Positions 1 to 27,052 of a stretch of 29,694 nt of DNA are shown piece by piece. Every line of letters begins with the position of its first letter. The stretch's first letter is position 1. A program made the position numbers and the translations under genes. The notes below the pieces were generated by a model that saw only the letters and a list, made by a program, of their open reading frames with translations, was not told the origin of the DNA and ran no database searches. Source of the DNA: an uncultured Clostridia bacterium (lineage in GTDB: Bacteria > Bacillota > Clostridia > Oscillospirales > Ruminococcaceae); the NCBI GenBank assembly GCA_947177695.1, contig CAMWVO010000001.1, positions 1-29,694 on the forward strand, written 5' to 3'.

Positions 1-2
1 TT

Positions 3-5772: not shown

Positions 5773-5887
5773 ATGCTATGCCTCCCGGTCGATCGGCGGA
5801 CGGCAGTTTGGTGTCATCTGTCATATCCGTCCGCTGACTGTAAGTATTGACAAGCGTCATCTACGCTGTAGATCAGCTATGCTGAAA

Positions 5888-7468: not shown

Positions 7469-7495
7469 CGGATGTACACTCCTTCAGTGGTAAAA

Positions 7496-8665
7496 TTATT
7501 CGTTAGGATCGGGATCGGATTCGTATATAAGCGACACATGAACGATATGCATATCGTCGTTGTTGTGTTTATAGGCGGAACGTATGTGGGTCCCGTAATT
7601 TCCGTTTATGTCCTCGATAATGCTTTTAAGCTCTCTGCTGTCGAAAAGTCTCGCCATAGCGGTAAAGTATGCGCTCTCGTCGGAAAACCGTATCTCGGCT
7701 TCTCTTTTTCCCGCAATACCCGCAGTTTTTATTTGTTCCGTCAATGCCTTGACGCCGTCCGCAGCGGAATAGAATATCAGGTTTTTTCCCGCGAAGTAGT
7801 TCAGTTTATCGCTTTCGCAGGGAACAAGACCGGCGCAAAGCTCGTCGGGGAAATGAGTATTCCCCTCGATCTCGCTGTCCTTTACCAAAAGATAGTCATG
7901 GCGGACAAAATCGGGATCGCCGCGTTTTATTGTAGGATCGTCCCATGTGCAGTCCACGTTGTACCAGTTTCCGTCCAGCAGTACTTTGTTCCACGCGTGG
8001 GTTATACCGTCCTTTGTTTTTCCGAAAGCAACATAGCAGGGTATCCGCGCTTTTTCGCAGAGAGCCGACATTGCGGCGGCGTAGCCCTCGCACTGACCCT
8101 CGCCTGTTACGAGAACTCCGTAAGCCGAATGGACGTGCTCCGACGTATCGCTGAAGGAGCAGTTCGTCACTATTTTGTCATGGAAATACACGATCTTATC
8201 GAAATCCGACGCGCCGTCGGGAAGTTCCCCGACTATAGTCGAAGCGGCAAGATCAAGTTCGCCGCGCTTGACCTCCGCGTCCTCACGTTCGTAAAGGTAG
8301 TGGAGCTTCAGCACGGATATCTCGCTGGACGGCGCATAAAACAGATTGCTGAGCCAGAAGTATTTGCGCTCCTGAGAATAGACCAGCTTATAGATCTTAT
8401 GAGCCGTATCCTTTGAGATCGGCGGATCGAAGGATACCGTATCCTTAAAATTTGAAACGGCGGTTTTAATTTTGTCGTAGATCGCCTTTTCTTCTTCTGA
8501 AAGGGACTCGTACACAGGCGAAATAAATTCGCCGTTTGCAGTGTACTCATAGCTGTTATCCGTGCCTGCCGAATTTCCCGCAGGCTCTTCCGAGACTCTC
8601 CGGCAGGAGCCTGTCATCAAAGTCAGAGCCGTGCAGAGAACGGCGGCGGCAATTTGTTTTTTCAT
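7496..8665 (-). CDS. Transglutaminase-like/papain-fold probable lipoprotein, paralog 3
   Basis: Signal peptide ending TGSC (non-canonical lipobox); GQCEGYAAAMSALC...HAWNKVLLDGNWYNVDCTWDDP. Confidence 0.88.
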   Translation of the reverse strand: MKKQIAAAVLCTALTLMTGSCRRVSEEPAGNSAGTDNSYEYTANGEFISPVYESLSEEEKAIYDKIKTAVSNFKDTVSFDPPISKDTAHKIYKLVYSQERKYFWLSNLFYAPSSEISVLKLHYLYEREDAEVKRGELDLAASTIVGELPDGASDFDKIVYFHDKIVTNCSFSDTSEHVHSAYGVLVTGEGQCEGYAAAMSALCEKARIPCYVAFGKTKDGITHAWNKVLLDGNWYNVDCTWDDPTIKRGDPDFVRHDYLLVKDSEIEGNTHFPDELCAGLVPCESDKLNYFAGKNLIFYSAADGVKALTEQIKTAGIAGKREAEIRFSDESAYFTAMARLFDSRELKSIIEDINGNYGTHIRSAYKHNNDDMHIVHVSLIYESDPDPNE

Positions 8666-8679
8666 AAAGTACCGAAATA

Positions 8680-10041: not shown

Positions 10042-10165
10042 AAGAATAGTTTCCTTTCCAATTTGCTCTTTGTCTGCGAACGCAGCTTTGTTTAAAAATG
10101 CTTTCACGAACGCAGGGGCAGGGGGAAAAAAGCTTACCCAAAAGCCTGTTCCCCCGCCCCGTTTT

Positions 10166-11830
10166 TTAGTTGTTATATGCTATATCGTACTCTACAACGA
10201 GGGTATCCTCGGTAAGATATGTCTGGAGTACGAGATTTTTTACATTGCTGTCCTTGCTCTTTGCGTATTTCTGGAATTCCTTCCACTGATCGGTATCGCG
10301 GAGAGCCTCCCATACGTCGCGGGACGTAACCCTGATATGAGCAACGTTCTTGCCTGCTGCGATAGCTGCGTCAAGCTCGTCGTACATACCCTGCTTAGCG
10401 GACGCAAGGTCGCTGAATTCCTTATTGTAAGCCTTGAAGTAGTAGCACGCCGTTTTGGTGCAGGCGGGAGGATTGTAGATCTTAACGCGGCTTCCGTTTT
10501 TCCTTGTTACGGTGCTGACGTTAAGGTGAGTATTCTTGATCATATCGTCATTTGCAAGGAAGAACAGGTAACGGATGTAGCTGCTCTTGCCGTAGGACGA
10601 AGTGGGGTCGCCCCATGTGGAGTCGAGGATATAGTATCCGTTGTCGCAGTAAACAACGTTCCATGCGTGGGTGCTTCCCTCGATGTTGTTTCCTGTAACT
10701 ACCATGCAGTCGATGCCTGCGATGTCGCAGAGGTAAAGAACGGTTTTTGCATAGCCCTGGCACTGGAGTTCGCCTCCGTCTGTCAGACCGTTGTAGATAC
10801 CGCAGGTCTTGTAGTTGCCCTGGAGGCTGAAGGTGTTGTTTAAAATTACCCAGTCGTAAATTACTTTAAGTTTGCTTACAGTGCTTGTATAGCCGTTGAC
10901 CTTGCTCATGATCTCGCTTACCGTCGCGTCGATCTCTTTCTGGGTCGCAGCAGCCTGGTCGGGTGTAAGATCGTACTGGAGGTTTATCATTCCGCCCAGC
11001 GAAACGGGAACAACGTTGGACATCCAGAAAAGCTGAGGTTCCTGATTGTACACGAGAGAGTAAACTCTTACGATATCGTCCGCGCCCATCGACGAGGGAA
11101 CGTCCACCTGAGTGTCAAAGTTTTCGGCAGCCTCAACTATATCCGCATAGAATGCCTGCTCGGTCTTGCTGAGCTGCTGATAGGGATATCTGTCCTTGTA
11201 GTTCTTGGAGTAGGCTGTTTTAACAGGGTTTGTTTTAGACGGCTTCTTTGTGGTCTCTTCCTCGATGATCTCGGTCTTTTTGGGAGCTGTGGTCGTCGCC
11301 TGAGTAGCCTCTGCGGGCTTCTGGTCGGTAACGTAGTCGGAGTGGATGAATGTGCCGTCCGCAAGCTTGTAGTAGCCTGTATCTGTTGCGGCAACTATGT
11401 TGATCTTCTGACCCACGTCGTATTTCTTAACGGATTCCGAGCCGACTATCGCCTGAGTTCTGGAGTAGCAGGAGGTCTTTATGTAAAGTGTCTCGCTGAT
11501 CTCGGTCTCGTTCCAGGCTTTTGCGGCTGCTGCGGAAGCGGTCGCCGCCGTAGCTTCGGTGGAAGCGGCGGTAGTTGTCTCCGTTGCGCTTGTTTCCGTT
11601 TCGCTTTCGGTAGTGGTATCCTCCGTAGTGGTCTCCTCAGGGACTGTGGTGGTTTCAGCGGTAGTTTCCGACTCCGTCTCGGACTCTGTAGTCATCTGAG
11701 TGAGCGACATGGACGAGGTGTCATCGCCCACATCGGGAAGTCCCGCCGATTCCTCGTCGGTTTTCTTACAGCCGGCGAGCATTGACGCCGCCATTAAGAA
11801 CGCAAGGATCAGACTAATTTTTTTCTTCAT
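10166..11830 (-). CDS. Transglutaminase-like/papain-fold lipoprotein with T/E-rich linker and SH3b-like domain, paralog 1
   Basis: SD AAGGAG; lipobox LAGC; SH3b-like segment at aa ~106-170; LQCQGYAKTVLYLC...HAWNVVYCDNGYYILDSTWGDP. Confidence 0.88.
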   Translation of the reverse strand: MKKKISLILAFLMAASMLAGCKKTDEESAGLPDVGDDTSSMSLTQMTTESETESETTAETTTVPEETTTEDTTTESETETSATETTTAASTEATAATASAAAAKAWNETEISETLYIKTSCYSRTQAIVGSESVKKYDVGQKINIVAATDTGYYKLADGTFIHSDYVTDQKPAEATQATTTAPKKTEIIEEETTKKPSKTNPVKTAYSKNYKDRYPYQQLSKTEQAFYADIVEAAENFDTQVDVPSSMGADDIVRVYSLVYNQEPQLFWMSNVVPVSLGGMINLQYDLTPDQAAATQKEIDATVSEIMSKVNGYTSTVSKLKVIYDWVILNNTFSLQGNYKTCGIYNGLTDGGELQCQGYAKTVLYLCDIAGIDCMVVTGNNIEGSTHAWNVVYCDNGYYILDSTWGDPTSSYGKSSYIRYLFFLANDDMIKNTHLNVSTVTRKNGSRVKIYNPPACTKTACYYFKAYNKEFSDLASAKQGMYDELDAAIAAGKNVAHIRVTSRDVWEALRDTDQWKEFQKYAKSKDSNVKNLVLQTYLTEDTLVVEYDIAYNN

Positions 11831-13193
11831 TTTGCATACTCTCCTTTTCTTCGCTTGTTACAGTATCCTTGATAATTTTTGCCTTGATCTTGGTAATACA
11901 CCGGTCCTCGGTAAGCAGGACGGTGAAAAGCACTCCGCCGTATTCGGCAGAGGGATTTTCGTTTTCTTCGGGGATACGTCCCAGAAGTTCGGCTATAAAG
12001 CCGTTCATTGTGTCAAAGCCGTTTTCCTCGGGAAGCTCTATCCCGAAAACTGGAAGTATCTCCTCGGGGTCGGCATTGCCCGCGATAACGTAGGTGTCCT
12101 CGGAAATCTCGGTAAGCGCGGCTTCTTCCTCGTCGTACTCGTCCTGGATATTTCCGACTATCCTTTCCACGATATCCTCCATCGTTACCAGTCCCGCCGT
12201 TCCTCCGTACTCGTCAACAACGGCAGCCATCTGCATTTTCTCGGAGGTGAGCCGCTTAAAGGCTTCTCCGCATGGGACGGATTCGGGAAGATATATGATA
12301 TCCCGCATAAAGCTTTTTGCCTCGGTATCCTCCGCGGATTCGGAGCCTACCAGACAGAGCAGGTCTTTAACGCAGATCATTCCCGCGATATGGTCGATGG
12401 TCTCCTCGTAGACGGGTATCCGTGAAAAGCCGCTTCCTATGGCGGCGTTCACAACCTCCGATACCCTTGCGGACATTTCCACCGCCGTAATGTCGGTACG
12501 GTGGGTCATTATATCCGAAACGGTAAGGTCGTCAAACTGGAAAACGTTGTTTATCATTTCCCTCTGGGACTCCTCTATAACGCCTGTTTCGTTGCCCGCG
12601 TCCACCATCATGAGGATATCCTCCTCTGTAACGATATCGGGCTCGCTGCCGGTTTTGGCTCCGAAAAGCGGAGCAAGCAGCCTTGTGAGCATGGAGGAAA
12701 GCGCGGTAAGCGGCGTAAGGACCGTCATCAAAAGCTTTACAAAGGGTGCGCAGAAAACCGCAAATTTCTCGCTTTTTGCCGCGGGCAGTCTTTTCGGTAT
12801 GCCCTCGCAGAAAGAAGTAAAGATCACCACCGTGCCTGTCATTATCAGGAGCGCGGCAATAATCTCCGCAAGGGGGTCGCCGTAAGCTGTTCCCTCGGCG
12901 GCTTCGCCGTTTACAAGACGGAACACAAGTCCCGACAAAGGCGCGAGAAAAAATATCATTGCCAGATAAGCGGCTGCAATGCCCGTAAGCGTTCTGTTCA
13001 CGGAAAACGCCGTCATAAGACGCGCGGGCTTTTCCGTCATATCGGCAAGCAGCTGTTTCCGTTTTGAACCGTCGGAATTTTTGAGCTTCCGCCAGTCGGT
13101 CTCGGTCACAGCCGATTCGCATACGGTGCAGAAACCTTTATAAAGTATGACTGCAAGAATAATAAGACTTCGGGGGTACCCGTCGGAATCCAT
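11814..13193 (-). CDS. CNNM/DUF21-CBS-CorC/HlyC 'hemolysin family' protein (putative Mg2+/Co2+ transport)
   Basis: N-terminal TM region (EGIPK), VTEEDILMMV, tandem CBS (DIMTHRTDI, GFSRIPVYEETIDHIAG, VVDEYGGTAGLVTMEDIVERIVGNIQDEYD), CorC-like C-terminus. SD GAAAGGA before ATG 13193. Confidence 0.93.
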   Translation of the reverse strand: MDSDGYPRSLIILAVILYKGFCTVCESAVTETDWRKLKNSDGSKRKQLLADMTEKPARLMTAFSVNRTLTGIAAAYLAMIFFLAPLSGLVFRLVNGEAAEGTAYGDPLAEIIAALLIMTGTVVIFTSFCEGIPKRLPAAKSEKFAVFCAPFVKLLMTVLTPLTALSSMLTRLLAPLFGAKTGSEPDIVTEEDILMMVDAGNETGVIEESQREMINNVFQFDDLTVSDIMTHRTDITAVEMSARVSEVVNAAIGSGFSRIPVYEETIDHIAGMICVKDLLCLVGSESAEDTEAKSFMRDIIYLPESVPCGEAFKRLTSEKMQMAAVVDEYGGTAGLVTMEDIVERIVGNIQDEYDEEEAALTEISEDTYVIAGNADPEEILPVFGIELPEENGFDTMNGFIAELLGRIPEENENPSAEYGGVLFTVLLTEDRCITKIKAKIIKDTVTSEEKESMQNEEKN

Positions 13194-13258
13194 AATCAAC
13201 TTCCTTTCGGACGATCGTTTTGTGTACAGTTCAGAAAGCGCAAACTGACACATTAAAA

Positions 13259-13287
13259 ATTATACAACAAACCGACAAAAAAGTCAA
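13259..13287 (-). promoter_or_regulatory. sigma-A-type promoter for the CNNM + lipoprotein operon
   Basis: TTGACT (13287-13282), 17-nt spacer, TATAAT (13264-13259). Confidence 0.8.
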
Positions 13288-13444
13288 GGAGATTACTACA
13301 GCCAATTATTATGAAAAATGACCGTAAAATCCGCTGATTTTTGGTGTGTTTGCGACATTTCTGCGCTATACATATATATCTGTAACCGAAGTTTAAAAAA
13401 TGTAAACGCTTTGTAACCGATTTTGCCGCAGTTCTGCCGCCGCG

Positions 13445-14902
13445 TCATTGATGAACGGAGGCGCCGCCGCTTTCGCTTCCAAAAAATTCCTCGGCTTTTT
13501 TTACATCTATCCCGCATATGCGGTGCTTGGAGGCGTGTTCGCCGCGGCTGTAGACCCATACGTCGCAGGTGCCGTTAAAGCGCTGGAATATCGTGCGGGA
13601 CAGTCTCACATAGGCTATCCTGCTTTTCGGCACTATGACCGTGTGGAACTGGGAAAACGTGCAGTACTTTAGTGTAATGGTATCGCTTCCGAAGCCGATA
13701 CCCGTGGTAAATTTTGCCGTTATTTTTACCGCGATAAGGTACAGCGAGGGTATCTCTCCCATTATCAGCAGGAACTTCACAATGCCGCTCCATGCGGGGA
13801 AAAACCGAGCTGCGGCAACCGCTCCCACAGGCAGCAGGACTGCGGAAAGAAGCGGTCCCCAGAGAAACGGCAGTATATAGAACGGCTTGGGCTTCAGGGA
13901 AATATTACTCAGAGTAAAGCTTGGCAGCATCATCTGCATGGTACTCATAACACGCTTTTTGGTAGTTATGGGTACAAAGACAGGTATCTCGTTCTTGGAC
14001 TTTCCGTAGCCGGTGCAGCTGACGTGAACGGACATCACGCGGCATATTTTCATAAGCAGGTTCTGGCGCAGGTCGGCGCAGTTCACTTTGGAAATATTCA
14101 CATAATATCTCCATTTTGAAAAGAAACCGTTCCGCACCGTAATATCGTTTCCGCACCGCTGTATGCGGAAGTTGATGTGTCTCAGAAGATTGGATACAAA
14201 GGAAAATCCCCAGCCCAGCGCAAATATCAGCGTCAGCGCGACTGCGGCGGGGGTAACTCCCGAAATTATCCTCTGCATAAATTCCGTAACGTCGCTGACT
14301 GCGTTCAGGAACTGCTCCTCAAGCTGATCTCCCACGATACGGCTTCCCTGAATGAAAAGCGTGCCGAGGAAGATAATTCCCGAAAGTGTGGAGGAAAATA
14401 CCAGCGAAAAGAAAACCAGATCGGCTTTAGAGGCTCGGTAGGAGAACTTTGCGTTTGCGGACGAATTTGGGATATTGTTGTATATCTTTGTATAATCGGT
14501 TAGTTTCATGATAAGCTCCGCATCGGCTTTTTTTCCCTGTCCCAGAGTGGAGTGGGAGTCCGAATCGAGAGCCACCGTTACCGCGCGTATGGGACGAAGC
14601 CATATGGAGCGCGCGGCGGAAGCGCAGGCTACCGCCGAATAGGGTATGGTAAATTCGTTCCTCAGAAACATACCGTGGGAAATGGAAATACCGTTTTCCC
14701 CCACCTCAAAGCGTATAAAATACCACCTTAAAACCGCAAAGCCTATCATAAGCAAAATTACGATCAGATCCCAGTACGCGCCCTGAAGCCAGTGGTAAAG
14801 ATCGAAGTTCATAGCCGCAAGTCCGCGCACCAGCGGTATCAGGAGCATCCAGAAGTTTTTTGTGGTATATTTCAGAATGGCGATCTTATGCTGCCGCGAC
14901 AT
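13445..14902 (-). CDS. YdbT-like membrane protein with bacterial PH (bPH_2) domains
   Basis: About 485 aa with alternating TM pairs and soluble segments (GISISHGMFLRNEFTIPYS...SIWLRPI; TIFQRFNGTCDV). ATG overlaps the upstream TGA. Confidence 0.8.
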   Translation of the reverse strand: MSRQHKIAILKYTTKNFWMLLIPLVRGLAAMNFDLYHWLQGAYWDLIVILLMIGFAVLRWYFIRFEVGENGISISHGMFLRNEFTIPYSAVACASAARSIWLRPIRAVTVALDSDSHSTLGQGKKADAELIMKLTDYTKIYNNIPNSSANAKFSYRASKADLVFFSLVFSSTLSGIIFLGTLFIQGSRIVGDQLEEQFLNAVSDVTEFMQRIISGVTPAAVALTLIFALGWGFSFVSNLLRHINFRIQRCGNDITVRNGFFSKWRYYVNISKVNCADLRQNLLMKICRVMSVHVSCTGYGKSKNEIPVFVPITTKKRVMSTMQMMLPSFTLSNISLKPKPFYILPFLWGPLLSAVLLPVGAVAAARFFPAWSGIVKFLLIMGEIPSLYLIAVKITAKFTTGIGFGSDTITLKYCTFSQFHTVIVPKSRIAYVRLSRTIFQRFNGTCDVWVYSRGEHASKHRICGIDVKKAEEFFGSESGGASVHQ

Positions 14903-15399
14903 CAAAGCCCTCCTCTGCTGCTGAGATACTGCCGTATCTTTTTGTCTATTTCTTCCATATCGGAATGGGATAAAAACATCATTATCAGCCGTCCGCCGTA
15001 AGCGTTTATTAACAAAAAATTAAAACTTGTGTAGCGGGAAAGGGGCATGGAGACCGTTGTTGTATACTGCACCGAGGACATTTTCACATAGATGGTATTG
15101 TTGAAAAATACTCCCGAGCGTATAATTATTTCGTCCGCTGAAAGGGTGTAGCTTACCGAGCGGTACCACAGCGGCAGAATAATCATCAGAAATATCACAT
15201 ATGCTGTTACAAGCAGTCCTATGAATATCCAGATGATTATTTCGGGAACGGTGACCTTTGCCAGCGCAAAATAGTCGGGGTAGCGCGCTTCGAGAAAATA
15301 CAGCAGGTACTTCAGCGCGATGATGATGCAGATTATCAGCAGGAATGTGAATATCCTAAGGAATTTCAAGCTCTTTCTATCCGCGTAGTATTTTTTCAT
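14902..15399 (-). CDS. YdbS-like PH-domain membrane protein
   Basis: 165 aa, two TM segments then YTLSADEIIIRSGVFFNNTIYVKMSSVQY. Coupled to the ydbT-like gene. Start reassigned to ATG 15399. Confidence 0.8.
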   Translation of the reverse strand: MKKYYADRKSLKFLRIFTFLLIICIIIALKYLLYFLEARYPDYFALAKVTVPEIIIWIFIGLLVTAYVIFLMIILPLWYRSVSYTLSADEIIIRSGVFFNNTIYVKMSSVQYTTTVSMPLSRYTSFNFLLINAYGGRLIMMFLSHSDMEEIDKKIRQYLSSRGGL

Positions 15400-15467
15400 A
15401 GCGATCAAAAACCTCGTTTGTCCTGTAATTAATGTGGGAGACGCGATCGTCCCGCGGGTCTGCAATA

Positions 15468-15482
15468 TGTTATAGTATATCA
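15468..15482. promoter_or_regulatory. Overlapping divergent extended -10 elements
   Basis: + strand TGtTATAGT (15468-15476); - strand TGaTATACT (15482-15474). No consensus -35 on either strand. Confidence 0.5.
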
Positions 15483-15556
15483 CGTTTCAGCCGCAAAAAA
15501 GCGTTTGCGGAATTTTTTCAGCGGGAGTGATCAGGGTGTACGGAATATTCTATGAT

Positions 15557-16894
15557 ATGATTTGCAATATTATCAGCAAACTCAATAATTTCCTGTGGGG
15601 AACGGGAACTGTCGCCCTTGTTTTCGGTGCGGGCATCTTCTTTACCCTGCGCTTCAAGGGTTTTAACATTATACATATAGTATATATTTTTAAATCCACG
15701 CTTTTTGAAAAAAAGAAAAACGGCAGCGCCCCAAAAGGAAAAATATCCCGTTTTCAGGCATTGTCAACCGCTCTTGCGGCTTCTATGGGGACAGGCAATA
15801 TTATAGGAGTAGCCGCCGCGATTTCCGTGGGCGGAGCGGGAGCAATTTTCTGGATGTGGGTCGTGGCGCTTTTCGGGACGGCTACGGGCATGGCGGAAAA
15901 TATTCTCGGAACAAAATATCAAGCCAAGGGGGACAGTCCCATGTCCTACGTGTCGCGGGCGACAGGGTCGGGGAAGCTTGCAGTACTGTACGCGGCTGCC
16001 TGCGCGGCGGCTTCCTTCGGTATCGGGAACATGACCCAGACCAACGCGCTGTCGGCGGCGATGTTCGAGTTCAGAGTTCCGACCGTTGTTTCGGGACTTG
16101 CCGCGGCTTTGTTCTGCGGGGCGGTAATATTCGGCGGAGGAAAAAAAGTCGCCGCAGCGGCAGAAAAAATGATCCCCGCCGTGTCCCTTTTTTACATAGC
16201 GGGAGCCGTTATTGTAATGGTGTTATTCGGTAAAAATATCATAGAAGTATTAAAGCTTATCCTTGGATCTGCAATGGGTTATTCACAAATTGCGGGAGGC
16301 TTCTGCGGCGCCGCGCTGAAAAAAGCCGTCGCCGTAGGACTGCGCCGCGGTGTCTTTTCCAACGAGGCGGGCATGGGAAGCTCTGTACTGGTACACACTG
16401 AAACAGGCTGTACCGAACCTCTGCAAATGGGAATGTGGGCAGCCGCGGAAATTGTTATCGACACGCTGATATGCTGTACTGCGACTGCCTTTGTTATCCT
16501 GCTCACGGGCGCGGACGCTTCGGGAGCGGAGGGTCTTGCCATGGTGACCGAGGGCTTCAGGCGCGGACTTGGAAATTACGCCGCGGTTTTTGCCTCCGTC
16601 TCAACGGTGATATTTGCGGTCTGCACTCTTCTTGGCTGGTATTTTTACGGAGAAAAATGCGTCCGCTATATATTCAAAGCCAAAAGCTCCGAAGCTGTTT
16701 TCGTCTATAGGATACTCTACACTGCCGCGGCTTTTCTCGGAGCCGTTACAGAGCTTTCCCTGGTCTGGGGCGCAGCCGATCTGCTCAACTGGTTCATGCT
16801 GGCGATAAATCTGTCATCGGTGCTGCTTCTCGGCGGAGAGGCTGCGGAGTGCGTAAATAATTATACTAAAAGTATATTCAGTAAAAAGAAGTAG
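15557..16894 (+). CDS. Alanine/glycine:cation symporter (AGCS family)
   Basis: ALSTALAASMGTGNIIGVA, GAIFWMW, GLRRGVFSNEAGMGS, CTLLGWYFYGE. Start uncertain (15527 GTG or 15557 ATG). Confidence 0.92.
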   Translation: MICNIISKLNNFLWGTGTVALVFGAGIFFTLRFKGFNIIHIVYIFKSTLFEKKKNGSAPKGKISRFQALSTALAASMGTGNIIGVAAAISVGGAGAIFWMWVVALFGTATGMAENILGTKYQAKGDSPMSYVSRATGSGKLAVLYAAACAAASFGIGNMTQTNALSAAMFEFRVPTVVSGLAAALFCGAVIFGGGKKVAAAAEKMIPAVSLFYIAGAVIVMVLFGKNIIEVLKLILGSAMGYSQIAGGFCGAALKKAVAVGLRRGVFSNEAGMGSSVLVHTETGCTEPLQMGMWAAAEIVIDTLICCTATAFVILLTGADASGAEGLAMVTEGFRRGLGNYAAVFASVSTVIFAVCTLLGWYFYGEKCVRYIFKAKSSEAVFVYRILYTAAAFLGAVTELSLVWGAADLLNWFMLAINLSSVLLLGGEAAECVNNYTKSIFSKKK

Positions 16895-16902
16895 CCGGAC
16901 TT

Positions 16903-17634
16903 TTATCTGTACCGCTTTCTTTTGGGCTTGTATTTGTCCCTTATACGCTTGGGGTGCTTTACGCCCTTGGCTATCTCCATCATTTCACGGCGGAAGCGTT
17001 CGCGGCGCAGATCCCGTTCGCGTATCTTGTTGGCGCAGTGGTCGATATGCCGCGCTATGCGGTCGCCGTAGGTGTAGAAATCCGTTACCTCCACGGTGCT
17101 GACGATCCTGCCGCCGTTTACGTCGTACCACCAGCGGTCAAAGGAAATGCCGTCCTCCGTTTCGGAGTAGCCCAGCCAGCGTGCGTCCTCGTTGAAATAT
17201 CTTGCTTCGGCGTTTATGGTAAGGTGATCGCGTATGCACTCCACGTTCGTCACGTCGGCAAGCTTTATCACCCACATTTTTTTGTAGTGTACCCATTTGC
17301 CGTCGTGACAGACCGCTCTGGTGTGCTGGGAGACCACCATTACCGAACCCGAAATGTGGATATAGGTATGCTCGCGGTGGGCGCGGATAAGTATCTCCGC
17401 GGCGGCAGAGCCGACAAGACAGACAACAAAGCCGTATGCGCAGGCGGCATAGGCAGCATAAAAGATGGTCCTGTACATTTCCTGGGGCAGTTCCTTGTCA
17501 AGCCCCGTCACAAAAAGCAGAACGACCACCAGAAGAGAAACGAGCATACTTACCGCGGGGAGAGCGGCGAGGAATATACGCCTGTTGTATTTTGCGGTCA
17601 GACGCTTTTCGTTGACCCTTATCATCTTGCGCAC
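16903..17634 (-). CDS. Hypothetical membrane protein (2 TM, basic C-terminus)
   Basis: SD GGAGGAGG 6 nt before GTG 17634; two hydrophobic helices; 18 nt downstream of the preceding gene. Confidence 0.75.
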   Translation of the reverse strand: MRKMIRVNEKRLTAKYNRRIFLAALPAVSMLVSLLVVVLLFVTGLDKELPQEMYRTIFYAAYAACAYGFVVCLVGSAAAEILIRAHREHTYIHISGSVMVVSQHTRAVCHDGKWVHYKKMWVIKLADVTNVECIRDHLTINAEARYFNEDARWLGYSETEDGISFDRWWYDVNGGRIVSTVEVTDFYTYGDRIARHIDHCANKIRERDLRRERFRREMMEIAKGVKHPKRIRDKYKPKRKRYR

Positions 17635-17652
17635 AGTTATCCTCCTCCGGGA

Positions 17653-18243
17653 TCAAGCCGTTTCGGTGCCGTAAAGCGGGACTGTCCCGCTGTTCTTTTC
17701 CGTTATGTAGTCCCTGTATTTTTTCAGATCGCCGCGGTAGACAAGCTCCGCGCCCTCGATGCTGCGGAAATCCTCCGGCTCTATAAGGGACGGCTGCTTG
17801 TCTATGTTGTGCTTGACCCCGCTTTTTCCCAGCACAAAGCCGACCCAGACCGAACATACAAAGCGGTTCCTGAGCTTGTAGGGGATATGCAGAGCCATAG
17901 GCAGCAGCGCTCCCACGTCGTAGGAATACGAGCCGCGGTTGAGTATAAAGTGGCGTATCACATCGTTGTAGCGTTCAAGCTGCTCGTCGGTAACGGGCAG
18001 GCGGTAAACCTCTCCGGGGATGGTCTTGCAGGCTCCGAAGACCTCGGTGAAAAGGTCCTCGCGGTTGAAGCCCGCGGGCAGCGGCTTTTCTTTTTTGTCG
18101 CGGCAGAAGCTGTACATTTCTGTGAGCATTTCGTCGGAGGCTATTGAAACGTGGGTGTATCTTTTGCCTGTCACAAAGCCTATGAGCTTTGACGGAAAAG
18201 TTCCCGTTCTTGTGAGGACGAGGTACAGATAACGTTTTTTCAT
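17653..18243 (-). CDS. Permuted papain-like (YiiX/YebB-type NlpC/P60) protein
   Basis: SD AAGGAG before ATG 18243. His comes early (YTHVSIA) and Cys late (YSYDVGALL...FVCSVWV), the order seen in circularly permuted NlpC/P60 enzymes. Confidence 0.7.
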   Translation of the reverse strand: MKKRYLYLVLTRTGTFPSKLIGFVTGKRYTHVSIASDEMLTEMYSFCRDKKEKPLPAGFNREDLFTEVFGACKTIPGEVYRLPVTDEQLERYNDVIRHFILNRGSYSYDVGALLPMALHIPYKLRNRFVCSVWVGFVLGKSGVKHNIDKQPSLIEPEDFRSIEGAELVYRGDLKKYRDYITEKNSGTVPLYGTETA

Positions 18244-18336
18244 GGTACTCCTTTTCGGCGTATCGGTTCGCAAGGCTTGCTGGCGGGAGCAAAGCTTCCG
18301 TTTTTTTCTGCCGTAATTTTAAATAATATTTAATTT

Positions 18337-18365
18337 ATTATAACATTTTTATTTGCCTTTGTATA
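18337..18365 (-). promoter_or_regulatory. Promoter for the 18243/17634 gene pair
   Basis: TATACA, 17-nt spacer, TGtTATAAT (extended -10) on the minus strand. Confidence 0.6.
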
Positions 18366-18454
18366 TAGTGCGGAGAAATTTTATTGTATTTTACACAAAA
18401 AAAGCCCCCAATATTTTAGATATTTAATAAATTTTATAAGATGAAAAAATTCTA

Positions 18455-18483
18455 TTGCAAAATTCATTTTTTTTTTGTATAAT
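18455..18483 (+). promoter_or_regulatory. sigma-A-type promoter of the PilZ-ParA-ComFB operon, with T10 tract in the spacer
   Basis: TTGCAA (18455-18460), 17-nt spacer containing T10 (18467-18476), TATAAT (18478-18483). Confidence 0.8.
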
Positions 18484-18524
18484 TAATAGTGATTGAAAAT
18501 ATACGGCTAAGGGGATACCTTCAT

Positions 18525-19190
18525 ATGATAAACAAGGATAAAATAAACAGAGTTCTGGTCTATAATCAGCGGGGAAGAATGCTGCTGTCTGCAAAGTCGG
18601 TTTCTTTCCCAAAGGACTTCTTCAAGATCAAGGGCATGGATCTCGTCATGCTTAAGGGAACGGATTTCCCTCTTATTTCCAAGGGAGAGCCTGTGGAAGC
18701 TATTTTTGAGTACCTGAACGGCGACCGCATAAAGTACAATACGGTTATCGACATCTGCACGGAATACCAGATAAACTTCCATGTGGGCGAGGGCGAGGTG
18801 CTGAAGGAGCGCAGAAGAAGCTTCAAGGTAATGGTGGATATGAGCGGCATTTCTCCCTTCTACATAAGGGGCGAGGAAATGTTCGCATTTGACGACCCCA
18901 TTGAGCTGCACATCATCAACCTGAATCTGGGCGGAGTTTTCTTTTCGTCAAATTCGGGATTTGAGGTGGGCGACCAGGTAATGCTCAATTTCCTTGACGG
19001 CGAAATGAAGCTGCTGACCGAGATACTCAGGATACAGCGGAACGATAACGGCGAAATAGAGGGCTATGGCTGCCGTTTCCTTGACGTGAACCAGTCTCAG
19101 GAGGAACGTCTGGCAAGGTTCATATTTGACTGTCAGGTTCTGGAAAGAGACCGCAGGCGCGCACTTGAGGCAAAGGCGAAAAAAGTGTAG
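18525..19190 (+). CDS. PilZ-domain protein (N-terminal domain + C-terminal PilZ)
   Basis: ERRRSFKV...INLNLGGVFF...VGDQVMLNF...EILRIQ...YGCRFLDVNQSQEERLARFIFDCQ. SD AAGGGG before ATG 18525. Confidence 0.88.
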   Translation: MINKDKINRVLVYNQRGRMLLSAKSVSFPKDFFKIKGMDLVMLKGTDFPLISKGEPVEAIFEYLNGDRIKYNTVIDICTEYQINFHVGEGEVLKERRRSFKVMVDMSGISPFYIRGEEMFAFDDPIELHIINLNLGGVFFSSNSGFEVGDQVMLNFLDGEMKLLTEILRIQRNDNGEIEGYGCRFLDVNQSQEERLARFIFDCQVLERDRRRALEAKAKKV

Positions 19191-19203
19191 AAAGCGGATA
19201 ATT

Positions 19204-19998
19204 ATGGCTACTGTTATTGTTGTTACAAATCAAAAGGGCGGAGTGGGAAAAACTACTACCTGCGCCGCTCTGGCGGGCATTTTCCGCAGCGAGGACAAGC
19301 GCGTTCTCTGCATTGATATGGATCCGCAGGGAAATCTTTCCTTTTCCCTGGGAGCGGAAGATGACGGCTATACCATACACGACGTTATGACGGGCGCGTG
19401 CGATATAAGGGAGGCTGTAAAGACCACCCACATATGCGACGTTATAACGTCAAATATTCTGCTTTCGGGAAGCGAGCTGGAGCTTACCTCCGAGCGCAGG
19501 GAGTTCATCTTAAAGGACATTCTGAAAATAATCAGATACAGCTACGACTATATTATCATAGACACTCCCCCCGCGCTGTCCATACTGACGATAAACGCCT
19601 ATACCGCGGCGGACGACCTTATTATCCCCATGACCCCCGAGATACTGTCGCTTCAGGGTATCGCCCAGCTTAAAGAGACTATCACTGCGGTAAAGAAGTA
19701 CTACAACAAGCGGCTTAATGTCCGCGGGATACTGCTGACGAAATACGTCAAGAAGCAGACCCTTGCCGAAGAGGTTGCGGAAATGGTGGAGATAGTAGCC
19801 GAGCAGCTTAAAACTCAGGTGCTGGACGTGAAGATCTCCGTTTCGGTGGCGGCGGCTGAGGCTCCCGCACATCAGGAGGTACTGACCACATATTCCCCCG
19901 GCTGCAAGGCGGCTAAGGACTACATCAAACTAGCGAAGCTTCTGTATCCCGAAGCTTTCGACGAGGAACGAACGGTAATTGGTTTTAAAAGAAAATAA
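19204..19998 (+). CDS. Orphan ParA/Soj-family ATPase
   Basis: Deviant Walker A NQKGGVGKTTT, DMDPQGN, YDYIIIDTPP, EAP; 264 aa; no adjacent parB. Start taken as ATG 19204. Confidence 0.93.
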   Translation: MATVIVVTNQKGGVGKTTTCAALAGIFRSEDKRVLCIDMDPQGNLSFSLGAEDDGYTIHDVMTGACDIREAVKTTHICDVITSNILLSGSELELTSERREFILKDILKIIRYSYDYIIIDTPPALSILTINAYTAADDLIIPMTPEILSLQGIAQLKETITAVKKYYNKRLNVRGILLTKYVKKQTLAEEVAEMVEIVAEQLKTQVLDVKISVSVAAAEAPAHQEVLTTYSPGCKAAKDYIKLAKLLYPEAFDEERTVIGFKRK

Positions 19999-20023
19999 AA
20001 CTGAATTGAAAGGATCCTGAAAT

Positions 20024-20557
20024 ATGGCGGGAAAGTCTGCAAGGACTGCAAAAAATACAAAAGCCGAAAAAGACGAAAAGGTCGAAGCCGAGAACACGGA
20101 AAAGACCGAAAGACCTAAAAAAACCGCTAAGACGGGCAAAGCGTCCGGGAATGCGAGATCCAATAAGACGGACGCGGTAATGCGGCTGCTGACCGGCGGC
20201 AAAAAGACCGCTCCCAACCCTATTCTGGACAGCAGTTTCAAGGTGGAAAGGATCACGTCGAAAAGCGTCCGCAAGGGCGCGAACGGCGCGGAGATAGACA
20301 TTACGGGCGAGCTTGTGACCGAGCTTCTGCCGCAGGTGCTGGAAAGGTTCAACTGCTGCCGCTGCGCGGTGTGCTACGCCGAAGCTATGGCGGACGCTGT
20401 GGACGCCGTTCCCACGCTGAAAATAAGGGTCAACGGCAAGGACGACCTGAGACGCGCCGACAGAATGAAAATGCAGAGCCGCCGCGAAGTACTCTGCACG
20501 CTGATAAGGCTTGCGATACAGCGGAGGCGTTTTCCCAGACACAATGTCGGCAACTGA
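20024..20557 (+). CDS. ComFB-domain protein with K/E-rich disordered N-terminus
   Basis: C-terminal ~85 aa ELVTELLPQVLERFNCCRCAVCYAEAMADAVDAVP...FPRH carries the CxCxxC and terminal PRH pattern of ComFB/CdgR. SD GAAAGGA. Confidence 0.75.
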   Translation: MAGKSARTAKNTKAEKDEKVEAENTEKTERPKKTAKTGKASGNARSNKTDAVMRLLTGGKKTAPNPILDSSFKVERITSKSVRKGANGAEIDITGELVTELLPQVLERFNCCRCAVCYAEAMADAVDAVPTLKIRVNGKDDLRRADRMKMQSRREVLCTLIRLAIQRRRFPRHNVGN

Positions 20558-20576
20558 ATATCCGAATACTTAGGGA

Positions 20577-20623
20577 CGGTATCCTGGGGACATGGCGGCA
20601 TATCCCCGGATATCGTTTTGTTT
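20577..20623 (+). terminator. Intrinsic terminator closing the PilZ-ParA-ComFB operon
   Basis: CGGTATCCTGGGGA...TCCCCGGATATCG hairpin followed by TTTTGTTT. Confidence 0.7.
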
Positions 20624-20634
20624 AGGGTGATACT

Positions 20635-21309
20635 GTGAGATACAAGAATATTGCTGAGGGACGGTTTGTTTCCCGTCCAAACAGATTTGTGGCGCACGTT
20701 GAGATCGGCGGAAAGACCGAGGTGTGCCACGTCAAGAACACGGGACGGTGCAGGGAGCTTCTGACAGAGGGCGCGCAGGTCTGGCTGGAAAAGGCGGAGC
20801 CGTCCGCAAAGCGAAAGACCATGTACGACCTTGTTGCCGTCCGAAAAGGGGACAGGCTCATCAACATGGACAGCGGCGCGCCGAACACTGCGGCGGGAGA
20901 GTTCCTGCCGACAATTTTTCCCGGCGGGACGATAAGACCGGAGTACAGCTGCGGGAACTCGCGGTTCGATTTTTATATAGAGCAGGACGGCAGGAAAATT
21001 CTGCTTGAGGTAAAGGGCGTTACCCTTGAAGAGGACGGAATAGTCAGGTTTCCCGACGCTCCCACCGAGCGGGGCGTGAAGCATATAAACGAGCTGTCAA
21101 GGTGTCTTGACGAGGGCTTTGAGACGTATCTGCTGTTCGTGATCCAAATGGCGGACGTGCGGTACTTTACGCCCAACGACGCAACTCACCCGGAGTTCGG
21201 ACAGGCATTAAGGCTTGCGGCTGAGCGTGGAGTAAGGCTGATGGCTTACGACTGTAAGGTAACACCCGACAGCATGAAAATAAGGAATAAGGTGGAGATA
21301 AGGCTATGA
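20635..21309 (+). CDS. sfsA: DNA/RNA nuclease SfsA
   Basis: RPNRFVAHV, HVKNTGRCRELL, SRFDF, EVKGVTL, FPDAPTERGVKHINEL, LFVIQM, PEFGQAL. Confidence 0.95.
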   Translation: MRYKNIAEGRFVSRPNRFVAHVEIGGKTEVCHVKNTGRCRELLTEGAQVWLEKAEPSAKRKTMYDLVAVRKGDRLINMDSGAPNTAAGEFLPTIFPGGTIRPEYSCGNSRFDFYIEQDGRKILLEVKGVTLEEDGIVRFPDAPTERGVKHINELSRCLDEGFETYLLFVIQMADVRYFTPNDATHPEFGQALRLAAERGVRLMAYDCKVTPDSMKIRNKVEIRL

Positions 21310-21479
21310 GCGAATGTGAAAGCTGTGTAAACTATGTTTACGACGAGGACTGGGAGCAGTACGTCTGCGCCGCCGATCTTGACGAGGACGAAATGGGAAG
21401 ATTTCTCAGCGGAGGCAGCAGCGAATGCCACTGGTACCGCCTTGACGACGAGTACGGCGTGGTCAGGAAGCAAATGTGA
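21306..21479 (+). CDS. Small acidic Cys-rich protein, DUF6472-like (57 aa, absent from the ORF track)
   Basis: MSECESCVNYVYDEDWEQYVCAADLDEDEMGRFLSGGSSECHWYRLDDEYGVVRKQM*. ATGA overlap with the sfsA stop; SD GGAG at ~21294. Confidence 0.85.
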   Translation: MSECESCVNYVYDEDWEQYVCAADLDEDEMGRFLSGGSSECHWYRLDDEYGVVRKQM

Positions 21480-21545
21480 TCGGATTTTATACAAAATATT
21501 GATGATCGGTGTGTAAATTTGTGCAAATTTGCCGATATAAATTCC

Positions 21546-21574
21546 TTTACTTTTTTTTGAAAATATGGTATTAT
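21546..21574 (+). promoter_or_regulatory. Promoter of the FN3 gene, T8 run at the -35/spacer junction
   Basis: TTTACT (21546-21551), 17-nt spacer, TGgTATTAT (extended -10, 21566-21574). Confidence 0.6.
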
Positions 21575-21647
21575 TATAACAATGGCTAAGTGTCTTTAAA
21601 AATAACAAGACGGACGGATAACGTCCCGCTATATATGGAGGGTATCT

Positions 21648-24600
21648 ATGCTGGATTTTAATACCAAAAAGGAAATGCTTCGGCGCTTAAAGGCGCGGCG
21701 GAGCAAGAACAAGCTGATGTGGCTCCCGTGTGTGACAGCCGAGATATTTATAAAACTGTGGTACGCTTTCCTGTGCCGCGCAGACCTTGCGCTGTCCGAT
21801 AAAAACGGAAACTTCCTCGGCGTAAAGCAGCCGAGCGAAAAGGTCAGGACCCGCAGACAGGACGATATAGTTTATGTCAAGAGACCGTTCTGGGGCAGGA
21901 TAATGTCCGCTGTTCTGGCTGCTGCCTTTGTGATGATGTTCGTTCCCGAGCTGGGTATAAGCTTCGAGGTCGCGGCGGCTATCACGGCGACTACCACGGT
22001 AGAAGGCGTGGACTACGTTTACGACCCCAATTCGGGCGGCAACGACAATTACTACAGAAAAGACGAGTTTGATTCCGCGTCTGCGCGCGTTATTGACGCG
22101 AGCCTTATAAACTACGACGTGGCATACGGCTCGGTGAGAGTTACCTGGTCTCTCGGTTCTCTCGACCGTGAACTGATCGACACGGTACATATTGAACTTG
22201 TTGATACGGCGTCGGGCCGAGTGCTCAATGAAAACAACGTCAGAAAAGACGCTTCCGAATGGGTATTCACCGATATAGGATCGACGACAGGCGTCAGAGT
22301 GCGTCTTGCACCCACAACGCTTATCGACAGATATAAATATACTCCCAAAGATCCTGACGATCCGGATTCAAGCGCAAGAATTTCTCTGGAGCAAAAGGAC
22401 GGCTTTGCCGTAGACGGTCAGGCGTCCATAAAGGATATAGGCAGGCTTGACGCTACGTTTGACCCGCCAGTGCTGAAGATCGTTAATGAAAACGGTGTGG
22501 AGATCGATGACTGCAGCATTATCGACTGCAACAGCGGAAAGGTAATGCTCACCTGGTCCGAGGTGCTTCAGAAAGGCGGAAATTCAAGCGATCTGAATAC
22601 TCCCGCAGAGGGATATGTGGTTTACAGGTACGATGTGACCAACAAGCGATATGATTCTCCGATGGACGTGGGTCATACGCTTGAATATGCGGTCAACAAC
22701 GTAACGCCCGGTTCGCGCTATCAGTACTTCATAGAGGCGTACAGAAACGTCTGGGGCAATACCGGTTATAACGAAAACAATGTGGGCATTATTTCCAGCA
22801 GTAAGGATCAGATCAAATCCAACAGCGAGACAAAGATGAACGTTATTTACTCCAGAGTGTTCAGAAATCTGTACATTGCTCCCGCTGCGCCCAATCTGGC
22901 TGTTGACGACGGAAATCCGAAAGCAAAATCCATCAAGCTGTCCTGGTCTCCTGCGGTAGGCGATTACGACGGCGTTGAGATATACCGCTCGGTCGGTGAG
23001 ATAGACCCGAAAACAATTCCCGAGGTTGCAAACGGAACAACAACTTTCTCCGACTGGCTCAAAACTCAGTCGGCAAGTCCGGGAGACGCCTATAAGGATT
23101 TCAAGATCACGGGCGTCGGCAAGTCTGACTTTGAAAAGGCAATAAGAAATATTGACGATACGACCAATATCGCCGAGGGCGTTCAGTATTATTACTATGC
23201 GATCGCCTATACGAGAAAAGACAACCAGGCGAAAATCTACAGCACACCTACTATCCGCGCGGCTAAGCTGGAGCTTAAGATCAGCAGAACGGCGCTGGCG
23301 ATCGTCAACAGCGACGGCAGAGTGGACGTTTCATGGACGGCTGTTGAGGGTGCGGACGGCTACCAGCTGGAGATCACTCAGAGATCAAGATACAACCCGA
23401 TTACAAAGAAGGTCGAGACGCTTAATCCGCCGGAGATAATTGACACAAGAGATATCGAAAACGGAACGACTTTCGCTCATACGGAGCTTTACAACGGTGA
23501 GCAGTACACTTACCGCGTAAGACCTTATGTTATGATCGAAACAAGCACAGGCGAAAGACCGTACTACGGCGAATGGTGCGACCCGCGCAACGTAACTGTC
23601 GGTCTGGGACTGGATACGCCAGAAAATGTTGTTGCCGACGGCAGCAAGGACGGTCAGATAACCGTTAAGTGGGACGCTGTTCCCGGTGCGACAGGCTATA
23701 CACTGTACTATAAGAATAAGAACACCGGCGCGTCCGGAACTTTCAAGACAACAAAAACTACCTACACTCAGACAAATCTTGTAAACGAACACGTTCTTGA
23801 ATATTACGTTGTAGCTTACAAAAATGTAAACGTCAACGGCAGCGACGGCGTTCAGGTGATCGAGAGCGACCCCTCGGGCATTGTTACCGTTAAAGTCGGC
23901 AAGGCTCTCACTACGCCGCAGGATCTTAAAGCCGTGACGACCGACGGAACTATCACAGTTACATGGGCTGCCGTAAACGGCGCGGAGGGCTATCTGCTCC
24001 ACTACAAATACATCAAAAAGAACGGAACCTCCACAAACTATACCGATGAGACCGTTTTTGACGTGACAAAGCCCAATTATGTTCATTCGGGACTTAACAA
24101 CGGCGACAGATACACATATTATGTAGAGGCTTATAAGGAAGTAAGCGGCGAAAGAGTGTTCAGCCCGAAATCCGATGAGGCTTGGGCTATTGTCGGCGTG
24201 CCTCTCGATGCTCCCAAGGACTTCTCGGGAACGACCAAGGACGGTATCGTGGATCTTAAGTGGACCGCGGTAAAGGGCGCAGAGGGCTATATCCTTTACT
24301 TCCGCAAAAACGGCGGAGCGTGGGAAGAGGTCGATATAAGCAAGACGAGCTTCCAGCACGCGGGTCTCAATAACGGCGACAGATACGAATACTACGTAGT
24401 GGCTTATAAGACCGTAAACGGTGAAAGAATTTTCAGCTCAGGCGAGTCAAACCACCTTAACTTTACGATAGGCGACGAGCTGGAGTCTCCCAAGGATTTC
24501 AACGCGGTGACAACCGATGGTCAGGTATCCCTGACATGGACAGCCGTTAAGGGCGCGGAGGGTTATATCGTCTACGCTTACGGCGGCGGACGCTCCTATC

Positions 24601-25897: not shown

Positions 25898-27052
25898 TTA
25901 TCTTACGCTGATAGCGGGATTGCTTTCTTTGATCCTTATTTTATCTTCGTACATACGCTTGTCTGCAAGAGAAATAACATCAAAAACGCTTACAAATTCA
26001 TCATCGTTTACGTCGGCAGCTCCTATTGCAATACTTAACGGTTGTTTTAGATCTGTGTATGTATTGCAGCCGTTCCGCACATCTGCGATCTCTTTTTCAA
26101 CGTTTGATTTATTTTTGTCAATAAATACCGCTACAAATTCATCTCCGCCTATACGGTAAACATTATATGCCGATCTCAGATTTTTGGATAGAACGTCCGC
26201 TGCCGCACGAATAAGCTCGTCTCCCGCAATGTGTCCGTAATTGTCGTTTACCGTTTTTAAACCGTTCAGATCGCATACAACGCATATTATCAAATTGCTG
26301 CCTTTTTCATCTGAAAAATATTTTGCATCAAGCCTTTTCATGTCCTCATTGTAGCAGTTCTTATTTTTGATACCGGTATCCAGATCAATGTACGCACGCT
26401 TCATAAAATGTGCGGCAGGATTTTCGATCGTGAAGAAAAGTCCCATTGTAACGAGAGTTACCGCCGCGCCGGTAAAAAAGAATTCCACGACCGAAAGCTG
26501 TATAAGCATACTTAAAAGCACAAACATATTGCAGGGCAGCAAACCGGTTATAATAGTTTTTTCCGCCCGCCGTATATTTACCAGAAGTATTACCATACCT
26601 GCAATATTGTACAGAGCAACTATGGCAAAGCCGACCAAGGTGCAGCTTCCCGCGCTGTAATCCGTTCCGTTTCCCGGCAGATACACTATTTTAAGGAAAG
26701 GCATTACAACCGCATATAAGAGAACAGGCAGACGCACAAATTTCAAATATTTTTTCAGCGACTCGCTTGAGATCAGATTTTTTAGAATATAGCAAAAAAT
26801 TTCGCAGCCAAAGCAGATGGCGGATAAATACATAAGCATATGCAAAACTTCATTCATAGACGCATCGACTGTCTGACGGTGATTTACGGTATAAACGGTT
26901 ACTCCGTCAAAGATAACGTGCGTAAGTCCAAACAGGCAAACCCTGAAAAATATTTTTTCGGTTTTGCTGCCGTATATCCAATAATATACCAGCAGCAGCA
27001 CCAGAATGATGGCGCATACTATTTCCGAACGCAGAACAAGAAGCATATTCAT
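25898..27052 (-). CDS. Membrane-anchored diguanylate cyclase (multi-TM N-terminus + GGDEF)
   Basis: DLDTGIKNKN, CDLNGLKTVNDNYGHIAGDELI, YRIGGDEF, SIAIG, LADKRMYEDK; about 6-7 hydrophobic helices N-terminally; SD CGGAG. Confidence 0.93.
   Translation of the reverse strand: MNMLLVLRSEIVCAIILVLLLVYYWIYGSKTEKIFFRVCLFGLTHVIFDGVTVYTVNHRQTVDASMNEVLHMLMYLSAICFGCEIFCYILKNLISSESLKKYLKFVRLPVLLYAVVMPFLKIVYLPGNGTDYSAGSCTLVGFAIVALYNIAGMVILLVNIRRAEKTIITGLLPCNMFVLLSMLIQLSVVEFFFTGAAVTLVTMGLFFTIENPAAHFMKRAYIDLDTGIKNKNCYNEDMKRLDAKYFSDEKGSNLIICVVCDLNGLKTVNDNYGHIAGDELIRAAADVLSKNLRSAYNVYRIGGDEFVAVFIDKNKSNVEKEIADVRNGCNTYTDLKQPLSIAIGAADVNDDEFVSVFDVISLADKRMYEDKIRIKESNPAISVR

Follow-up and report, generated by a model that had tools for sequence, protein, structure and literature searches.

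We analysed a 29,694-nucleotide stretch of DNA (the window; assembly GCA_947177695.1, contig CAMWVO010000001.1, positions 1 to 29,694) from an uncultured Clostridia bacterium of the Ruminococcaceae, and within it a chromosomal operon of three co-directional genes. The genes encode a PilZ protein, a ParA-type ATPase that has no ParB nearby, and a protein with a ComFB fold that carries a short conserved peptide, through which it is predicted to dock onto the ATPase. On balance the operon is probably a flagellum-associated module, linked to cyclic dimeric guanosine monophosphate (c-di-GMP), in which a ParA and its partner control flagella. It comprises the following features.

18455–18483, plus strand: sigma-A-like promoter candidate, TTGCAA-17 nt-TATAAT, with 10 of 12 consensus matches
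18525–19190, plus strand: PilZ protein of the MotI/YcgR type, 221 residues, from a Pfam PilZ match and a structure model
19204–19998, plus strand: ParB-less ATPase of the ParA/Soj type, 264 residues, from AAA_31 and PDB matches
20024–20557, plus strand: predicted ParA partner, 177 residues, made of a variable tail, a docking peptide, a short linker and a ComFB-fold domain
20024–20155, plus strand: variable tail of the partner rich in lysine and glutamate (K/E), residues 1–44, from alignments and low model confidence
20156–20230, plus strand: conserved, predicted docking peptide of the partner, residues 45–69, RSNKTDAVMRLLTGG...NPILD, from alignment and complex model
20288–20542, plus strand: ComFB-fold domain of the partner, residues 89–173, with a Zn-type site of C112, C114, C117 and H173
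20574–20623, plus strand: hairpin and U-tract resembling an intrinsic terminator, from folding

The three-gene operon is confirmed. An initial inspection of the letters and their translations (the sequence-only reading) had placed exactly three genes between one promoter and one terminator and had named the first two a PilZ protein and a ParA without parB, all of which is borne out below, the promoter as a candidate. The genes are separated by gaps of only 13 nt (19191–19203) and 25 nt (19999–20023). The hairpin that follows them (20574–20618) runs into UUUUGUUU and folds with −30.4 kcal/mol (z −3.1), 1 of 200 shuffles folding equally well; it was seen only by folding, a simple consensus scan having missed any terminator after the third gene. 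The promoter candidate is weak evidence when taken alone because the AT-rich leader holds many such matches (11 promoter-like sites in the region against 3.3 expected). Inspection by eye found no SigD/FliA-type promoter upstream of the operon, and positions 17500–21700 match no riboswitch or other RNA family in Rfam, so that the leader holds no c-di-GMP riboswitch. A run of ten T residues in the promoter spacer (18469–18478) keeps its length in contigs from three related strains (X1, X3 and X4), although these differ at many other positions; this is weak evidence against a phase-variable promoter. Both gene junctions are bridged by strandless contigs from two RNA libraries of related strains, 90–99% alike, and these contigs are only consistent with a single transcript for the three genes.

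The first protein was taken to start at ATG 18525, within an open reading frame (ORF) of 233 residues that opens at GTG 18489. Residues 107–213 of that 233-residue ORF match the Pfam PilZ hidden Markov model (HMM; PF07238) at E 2.6e-12, with 47.4 bits against a cut-off of 22.5. The structure model (predicted local distance difference test, pLDDT, 88) consists of two β-barrels and a C-terminal helix, the two-domain architecture in which a PilZ-like barrel precedes the PilZ barrel. Its best structural match is MotI (5VX6; E 3e-7), followed by PP4397, MrkH, VCA0042 and YcgR, all at probability 1.00, and MotI is also the best PDB match by sequence. The protein thus resembles MotI of B. subtilis (DgrA/YpfA) and YcgR of E. 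coli in size and in its two barrels. It differs from them in identity, which is about 12%, in sharing an operon with a ParA gene, and in its c-di-GMP motifs, where R97xxxK101 and NxNxxG (N-L-N-L-G-G) stand in place of RxxxR and D/NxSxxG (NxSxxG in MotI and YcgR). Both variants are kept in orthologues of the PilZ protein; a more distant operon partner, at locus L080, has the canonical DLSAGG.

The second protein matches AAA_31 at E 6e-53 and has an intact deviant Walker A motif, KGGVGKT. Residues K11, G12, G13, G15, K16, T17, D38, D40 and D120, which make up the signature lysine and the Walker A, A′ and B motifs, are invariant in 18 ComFB-linked ParA orthologues. The protein is predicted to be a functional ATPase of the deviant-Walker-A class, dimeric when ATP is bound. 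Among solved structures it comes closest to a 'ParA family protein' (8RAY; E 1e-44), followed by Soj (6IUB; E 1e-36); its PDB hits at E ≤1e-10 include no FlhG, and in sequence it lies nearer Soj/ParA than MinD. It starts MATVIVVTNQKGG, with 8 residues before Walker A and without an N-terminal extension of the FlhG type. None of the NCBIfam equivalogs is reached: NF041546 reaches 100 of the 180 bits that its cut-off requires, and MinD, RepA and BcsQ likewise stay below theirs. Other ParA-like genes of the genome, on contigs C2 and C389, were considered as FlhG and rejected; they are MinD-like and lie beside mreC and penicillin-binding protein genes.

A ParA whose nearest structures are chromosomal ParA and Soj, encoded next to a protein with a basic N-terminal region, could in principle belong to a DNA partition system of a type Ib-like kind, with the ComFB protein as the centromere-binding adaptor of a mobile element or the chromosome. 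We consider this extremely improbable. No ParB gene lies near the operon; the only ParB_N match of the genome is on contig C163, beside a Soj-like ParA, so that the genome already has a Soj–ParB pair. A repeat search around the operon found no iterons and no parS-like or centromere-like arrays, and the partition-system reading was rejected on that ground. Moreover, ComFB is not a known DNA-binding fold, and the ParA–ComFB pair is chromosomal and, in six families, is conserved within flagellar loci or next to them.

The third protein has no Pfam or NCBIfam match at default thresholds. Its direct match to Pfam ComFB (PF10719) falls short of significance (E 0.05–0.15), scoring 12.6 bits with the full sequence and 14.2 bits with the last 100 residues against a cut-off of 25, and a family profile and a fold comparison were therefore needed. 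Searching with a profile built from close relatives gave 117 cluster representatives; 51 of the 72 scanned match PF10719 at E ≤0.01 (best 7.2e-21). The top PDB hit by sequence is B. subtilis ComFB (BsComFB, 4WAI; E 0.059), aligned on CxCxxC. The structure model, with pLDDT 96–98 over residues 91–170, retrieves chains of CdgR (8HJA) and BsComFB (4WAI) as all of its first five Foldseek hits, the next hit having E >2; chain 4WAI_D is matched at probability 1.00, with a template modelling score of 0.67 on the target and a root mean square deviation of 2.9 over 91 columns. At the level of this model the ComFB fold is confirmed.

The cysteine cluster CCRCAVC spans C111–C117 and the terminal PRH is P171–H173. 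In the alignment to 4WAI, C112, C114 and C117 fall on C25, C27 and C30; together with H173 they are conserved at least 90% in 72 relatives. The protein thus has a zinc-type site of the kind found in Bacillota (C25, C27, C30 and a fourth ligand), except that the fourth putative metal ligand is His173 instead of Cys88; the zinc site was described for BsComFB, and Cys88 is reported not to be conserved in Bacillota (PMC12448109). Hence the ComFB domain named by the sequence-only reading is upheld by the family profile, the fold, CCRCAVC and PRH, and fails in the direct HMM check. The window's genome also has a second ComFB, short and stand-alone (contig C177:1047–1301), which offers a built-in contrast to the ParA-linked copy.

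Ahead of the ComFB domain, what had been described as about 90 K/E-rich residues resolves into three parts: a variable K/E tail of about 44 residues, a conserved peptide of 25 residues, which is the one that had been pointed to, and a short linker. The tail varies in length among close relatives and is absent in many, so that the conserved peptide, rather than the tail, is the partner element. Close homologues of the whole protein range from 135 to 220 residues; two related strains have a 9-nt deletion at 20109–20117, and one RNA-library contig skips 116 nt (20042–20159). The peptide, in which KTDAVMRLLTGG forms residues 48–59, has the consensus K/R-S/T-x-K-T-x-x-V-M/L-x-L-L-T...N-P-I-x-D, with T49 invariant and K48 nearly so, and it is kept in relatives whose identity lies between 23 and 67%, and in at least 30 loci. 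Partners always begin with it, in one of two flavours, K-T-x-x-V-L-x-L-L or K-D-L-M/I-F-x-K-I, after which a linker of low complexity runs for 20 to about 350 residues.

We modelled a complex of two ParA protomers, two ATP and two copies of partner residues 40–177, from shallow alignments (18 and 26 rows). The interface score ipSAE was 0.63, 0.59 and 0.63, against 0.02 for the best of three controls; in calibration, 58 of 80 solved complexes attained the mark for this score, as did 2 of 110 mismatched pairs. Only partner residues 45–69 touch ParA in the model, and they do so symmetrically on both protomers. Since the gene pair is conserved and the modelled contacts are confined to residues 45–69, the third protein is very probably a ParA partner that acts through the conserved peptide, as predicted by the model. 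The sequence-only reading had made the ComFB protein the partner of the ATPase and had proposed modelling the complex and surveying gene neighbourhoods as checks; both came out in its favour.

The two proteins might instead be mere neighbours that form no physical complex, the score being an artefact of likeness to solved ParA–peptide complexes. Passing scores can indeed stem from model memory, and the thin alignments behind the model would fit such an artefact. We judge it very improbable, because the N-terminal peptide and a ParA neighbour always co-occur while flanks, linkers and even the ComFB ligand signature vary, and the ParA stop and the ComFB start overlap in several loci.

The pairing is conserved well beyond the window. 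We searched 401 genomes of the order and 400 Clostridia genomes class-wide by profile and read the neighbourhoods with custom HMMs. In the order sample an extended ComFB always lies directly downstream of this type of ParA, often overlapping it, in 32 genomes from six families. The class-wide sample has an extended ComFB with ParA in one genome, the rest being nearly all short stand-alone ComFBs. The pair also occurs in five of the six independent metagenome lineages examined, with ComFB identities of 27–37% and unrelated flanks. A script left 46 ComFBs unpaired, of which 45 are short, stand-alone and without a ParA neighbour; the 46th, at locus L075, is ParA-linked, with an extra ORF of 107 residues and no Pfam match (L075:9567–9887) between ParA and ComFB in a flagellar/chemotaxis operon.

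The neighbourhoods of the pair in other lineages are rich in flagellar and c-di-GMP genes:

L038, L073, L086: PilZ-(GGDEF)-ParA-ComFB adjoining flgB-flgC-fliE-fliF-fliG
L037: ParA-ComFB, then the flgB operon
L075: flhA-fliA-rod-rod-cheC-cheD-cheV-ParA-x-ComFB-fliD
L071, L082: pair divergent from fliD
L074: pair divergent from flgM
L071: EAL-HDOD gene adjoining the pair
L081: HD-GYP-type gene directly upstream of the pair
L041: GGDEF gene directly upstream of the pair (GGDEF next to the pair also in L038, L073 and L086)

The c-di-GMP link of the module is backed by these GGDEF, EAL-HDOD, HD-GYP and PilZ genes adjoining the pair; the operons of sister lineages have a gene for a sensor diguanylate cyclase between those for PilZ and ParA. 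The window's genome itself has a flgB operon, FliG, flagellin and at least 13 GGDEF genes in addition to its second ComFB. In a congener (G542:C61:46359–60400, corresponding to window positions 4573–18400) the point that matches position 4573 is 113 bp away from the start of the flgB operon, and an array of transglutaminase-like genes lies within the 14 kb that separate flgB from the module. Window positions 1–4572 have no counterpart in this congener.

The phyletic pattern agrees with the neighbourhoods. FliG is present in 85 of the 401 genomes of the order sample and FlhF, above its curated cut-off, in 28. Some ComFB occurs in 55 genomes, 53 of which have FliG. Among the 32 pair-bearing genomes FliG is present in every one and FlhF in none, and in families f88 and f97 FlhF genomes and pair genomes stand side by side and never overlap. 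In the window's genome (77% complete) and in four more genomes that carry the pair (99% complete), no FlhF was found above the cut-off, and the FlhF matches of these five are only at the level of Ffh/FtsY. The neighbourhoods and this FliG/FlhF pattern place the module with the flagellar system, a link that the sequence-only reading had missed. In family f90, nine of ten genomes have FliG and neither FlhF nor a ComFB match, and there may be a third solution for flagellar control there.

In its immediate surroundings the operon of the window is flanked upstream by a divergent gene (17653–18273, minus strand) and downstream by sfsA (20635–21309). The terminator-like hairpin ends 17 nt ahead of the sfsA start, and read-through is possible. 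Both sfsA and a DUF6472 gene (20635–21479) also follow the operon in a relative at 67% identity (L001), and sfsA does so in genome G770 (L085). A protein of 383 residues with a C-terminal GGDEF domain (E 7e-21) is encoded at 25898–27052 on the minus strand, 5 kb beyond the downstream end of the operon, whereas sister lineages have a GGDEF gene within the operon itself.

Motility cargo other than flagella, such as chemoreceptor arrays, could be what the pair positions, in the manner of ParC–ParP or PpfA–TlpT. The genes for PpfA and ParC lie in chemotaxis operons, and the N terminus of a partner activates each of the two proteins; in L075 the pair directly follows cheC-cheD-cheV. The neighbours are, however, mostly structural flagellar genes (flgB operon, fliD, flgM) rather than che genes, and the partner has no chemoreceptor or CheW-type domain, which makes a chemoreceptor cargo improbable.

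These observations suggest how a flagellar module could work. The ParA would dimerise on ATP and the downstream ComFB protein would be its dedicated partner. The peptide K-T-x-x-V-M/L-x-L-L within residues 45–69 is predicted to dock on each ParA protomer near the dimer interface, and by analogy with the peptides of ParB, MinE and McdB it probably stimulates ATP hydrolysis. The flexible linker would tie the peptide to a dimeric, zinc-stabilised ComFB-fold domain that carries the output or cargo contact, presumably with a flagellar component. The MotI/YcgR-type PilZ protein is the likely c-di-GMP input, or an effector at the flagellar motor, and would place the module under c-di-GMP. Most likely the module governs how many flagella FlhF-less Clostridia have, where these are placed or how active they are. 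A bolder proposal, which we put forward tentatively, is that the ParA–ComFB pair is an unrecognised flagellar patterning or control system that replaces FlhF/FlhG in FlhF-less Clostridia; the ComFB domain would tether the ATP cycle of ParA to the basal body or motor, and c-di-GMP would enter through PilZ and the cyclase, not through the degenerate ComFB pocket.

What ComFB itself does to motility bears on a different arrangement, in which ParA positions nothing but holds and releases ComFB at the nucleoid, free ComFB inhibits the motor directly, and PilZ is an independent, MotI-like clutch. BsComFB inhibits flagellar function without any ParA (10.1101/2025.07.11.664319), and many loci of the pair have no PilZ. 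Some of the ParA orthologues, moreover, have C termini that may suit DNA. Two ComFB-linked orthologues (L041:264–1088 and L040:3–518) end in AT-hook-like tails (GRGRPRK...) and the ParA of L073 ends in a long basic tail, which hints at nucleoid binding in some lineages. In the alignment to 8RAY, the position corresponding to R189 of Soj is K in the window and R in most orthologues, which would suit the same arrangement; the two later DNA-binding arginines of Soj, however, are V and A in the window's ParA. The flexible linkers of 100–350 residues in many partners also resemble cargo tethers more than parts of an on/off inhibitor. We therefore hold sequestration at the nucleoid to be unlikely, though a serious contender.

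The ligand signature of the ComFB domain qualifies the c-di-GMP part of the flagellar module. In BsComFB, c-di-GMP is contacted by D33, A36, L37, N40, R/K41, V47 and Y55, and Y46 is among the dimer residues (PMC12448109). At D33, A36, L37, N40, R/K41, Y46, V47 and Y55 the window's ComFB has E, A, D, D, A, K, I and L. Counting from the CxCxxC anchor in 46 stand-alone and 32 ParA-linked ComFBs, D33 is kept in 45/46 of the former and 23/32 of the latter, A36 in 46/46 and 22/32, N40 in 43/46 and 9/32, Y46 in 46/46 and 24/32, and Y55 in 31/46 and 0/32. The ParA-linked branch thus has a relaxed ligand signature, of which the window's clade has lost most; the signature of the window is the most eroded among those examined, whereas the ParA-linked protein of L037, for example, retains ALN...YV. 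Judged from these residues and genes, c-di-GMP more plausibly enters the module through the PilZ protein together with neighbouring cyclases and phosphodiesterases than through the ComFB pocket.

Several points weigh against the flagellar, c-di-GMP-linked module as we read it. Five of the eight signature ligand-contact positions are changed in the ComFB of the window's clade, and nucleotide binding may have been lost there. The PilZ motifs are non-canonical, so that c-di-GMP binding by the PilZ protein is putative; with both flanking proteins altered in this way, the earlier suggestion that the ATPase is flanked by two second-messenger sensors is doubtful. The contact between ParA and partner is a matter of model confidence alone, and since ParA–peptide complexes have already been solved, the model may score from likeness to them. 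In the window the module stands outside a flagellar locus, between a hypothetical gene and sfsA. Phylogeny confounds the exclusion between FlhF and the pair, since one family accounts for 22 of the 28 genomes with FlhF. One homologue, P0122 (47% identity, on a 1.3-kb contig), has a non-ParA ORF upstream and is the sole exception to the pairing. When Soj and MinD of the genome serve as outgroups to a ParA tree, Soj falls within the ingroup, on a branch of great length; this placement is unreliable, and a single clade of ComFB-linked ParAs is conjectural. Finally, the RNA-library contigs that span the gene junctions may be DNA carry-over.

The module shares elements with several known systems. 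With BsComFB and CdgR/ComFB (8HJA) the third protein has in common the fold, the CxCxxC zinc-type site and homology at profile level. ComFB is a widespread family of receptors for cyclic dinucleotides (c-di-GMP and cyclic dimeric adenosine monophosphate), encoded near flagellar genes (PMC12448109), and its members bind c-di-GMP and inhibit flagellar motility (PMC12448109; 10.1101/2025.07.11.664319). An association with flagellar genes is therefore common to both sides, the published motility role lying on the ComFB side. Unlike BsComFB and CdgR, the third protein has an added N-terminal docking peptide, is of a kind always paired with ParA, uses His173 for Cys, has its ligand contacts altered as described and lies below the Pfam cut-off.

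The likeness to ParA–ParB (Soj–Spo0J), MinD–MinE, McdA–McdB, PpfA–TlpT, ParC–ParP and PomZ–PomXY lies in a deviant Walker A ATPase with its partner encoded immediately downstream, and in a partner built from a short N-terminal peptide with a nearly invariant lysine, a flexible linker and a dimeric domain; here too, in the predicted complex, the peptide rests on the ParA dimer. Unlike in those systems, the globular domain of the partner has a ComFB fold, which we found reported for no ParA partner, no centromere was found, and the context is flagellar and c-di-GMP-related rather than DNA, carboxysomes or division. With FlhF/FlhG, in which the MinD-type FlhG (YlxH/FleN) sets flagellar number and place, the pair shares a ParA/MinD-superfamily ATPase in or near flagellar clusters. 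The ParA of L075 lies downstream of flhA-fliA, where Bacillus has flhF-flhG, and the distribution of the pair is complementary to that of FlhF. In contrast to FlhG, the ParA has neither an N-terminal activator-helix extension nor an FlhF partner and is closer to Soj/ParA than to MinD. The composition had been put forward as undescribed, and our literature search likewise found no paper that describes a PilZ–ParA–ComFB combination or links ComFB with ParA or FlhG.

The motility target of ComFB is stated to be unknown by those who described its effect, who name it as an open question (10.1101/2025.07.11.664319). A large ComFB subfamily hard-wired to a dedicated ParA offers a concrete protein partner that is open to direct test. 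The window holds a derived form, detached from the flagellar locus, with the docking peptide internal behind a hypervariable K/E tail and followed by a short linker, and this form is useful for separating a ParA-docking role from a nucleotide-sensing one. For the ParA/MinD family, the ParA–ComFB pairing would add a new class of cargo or partner. For the organisms, the presence of the pair, in the order sample, only in flagellated genomes that lack FlhF suggests a way in which many Clostridia of the gut and rumen might govern flagellar number, placement or activity without FlhF/FlhG.

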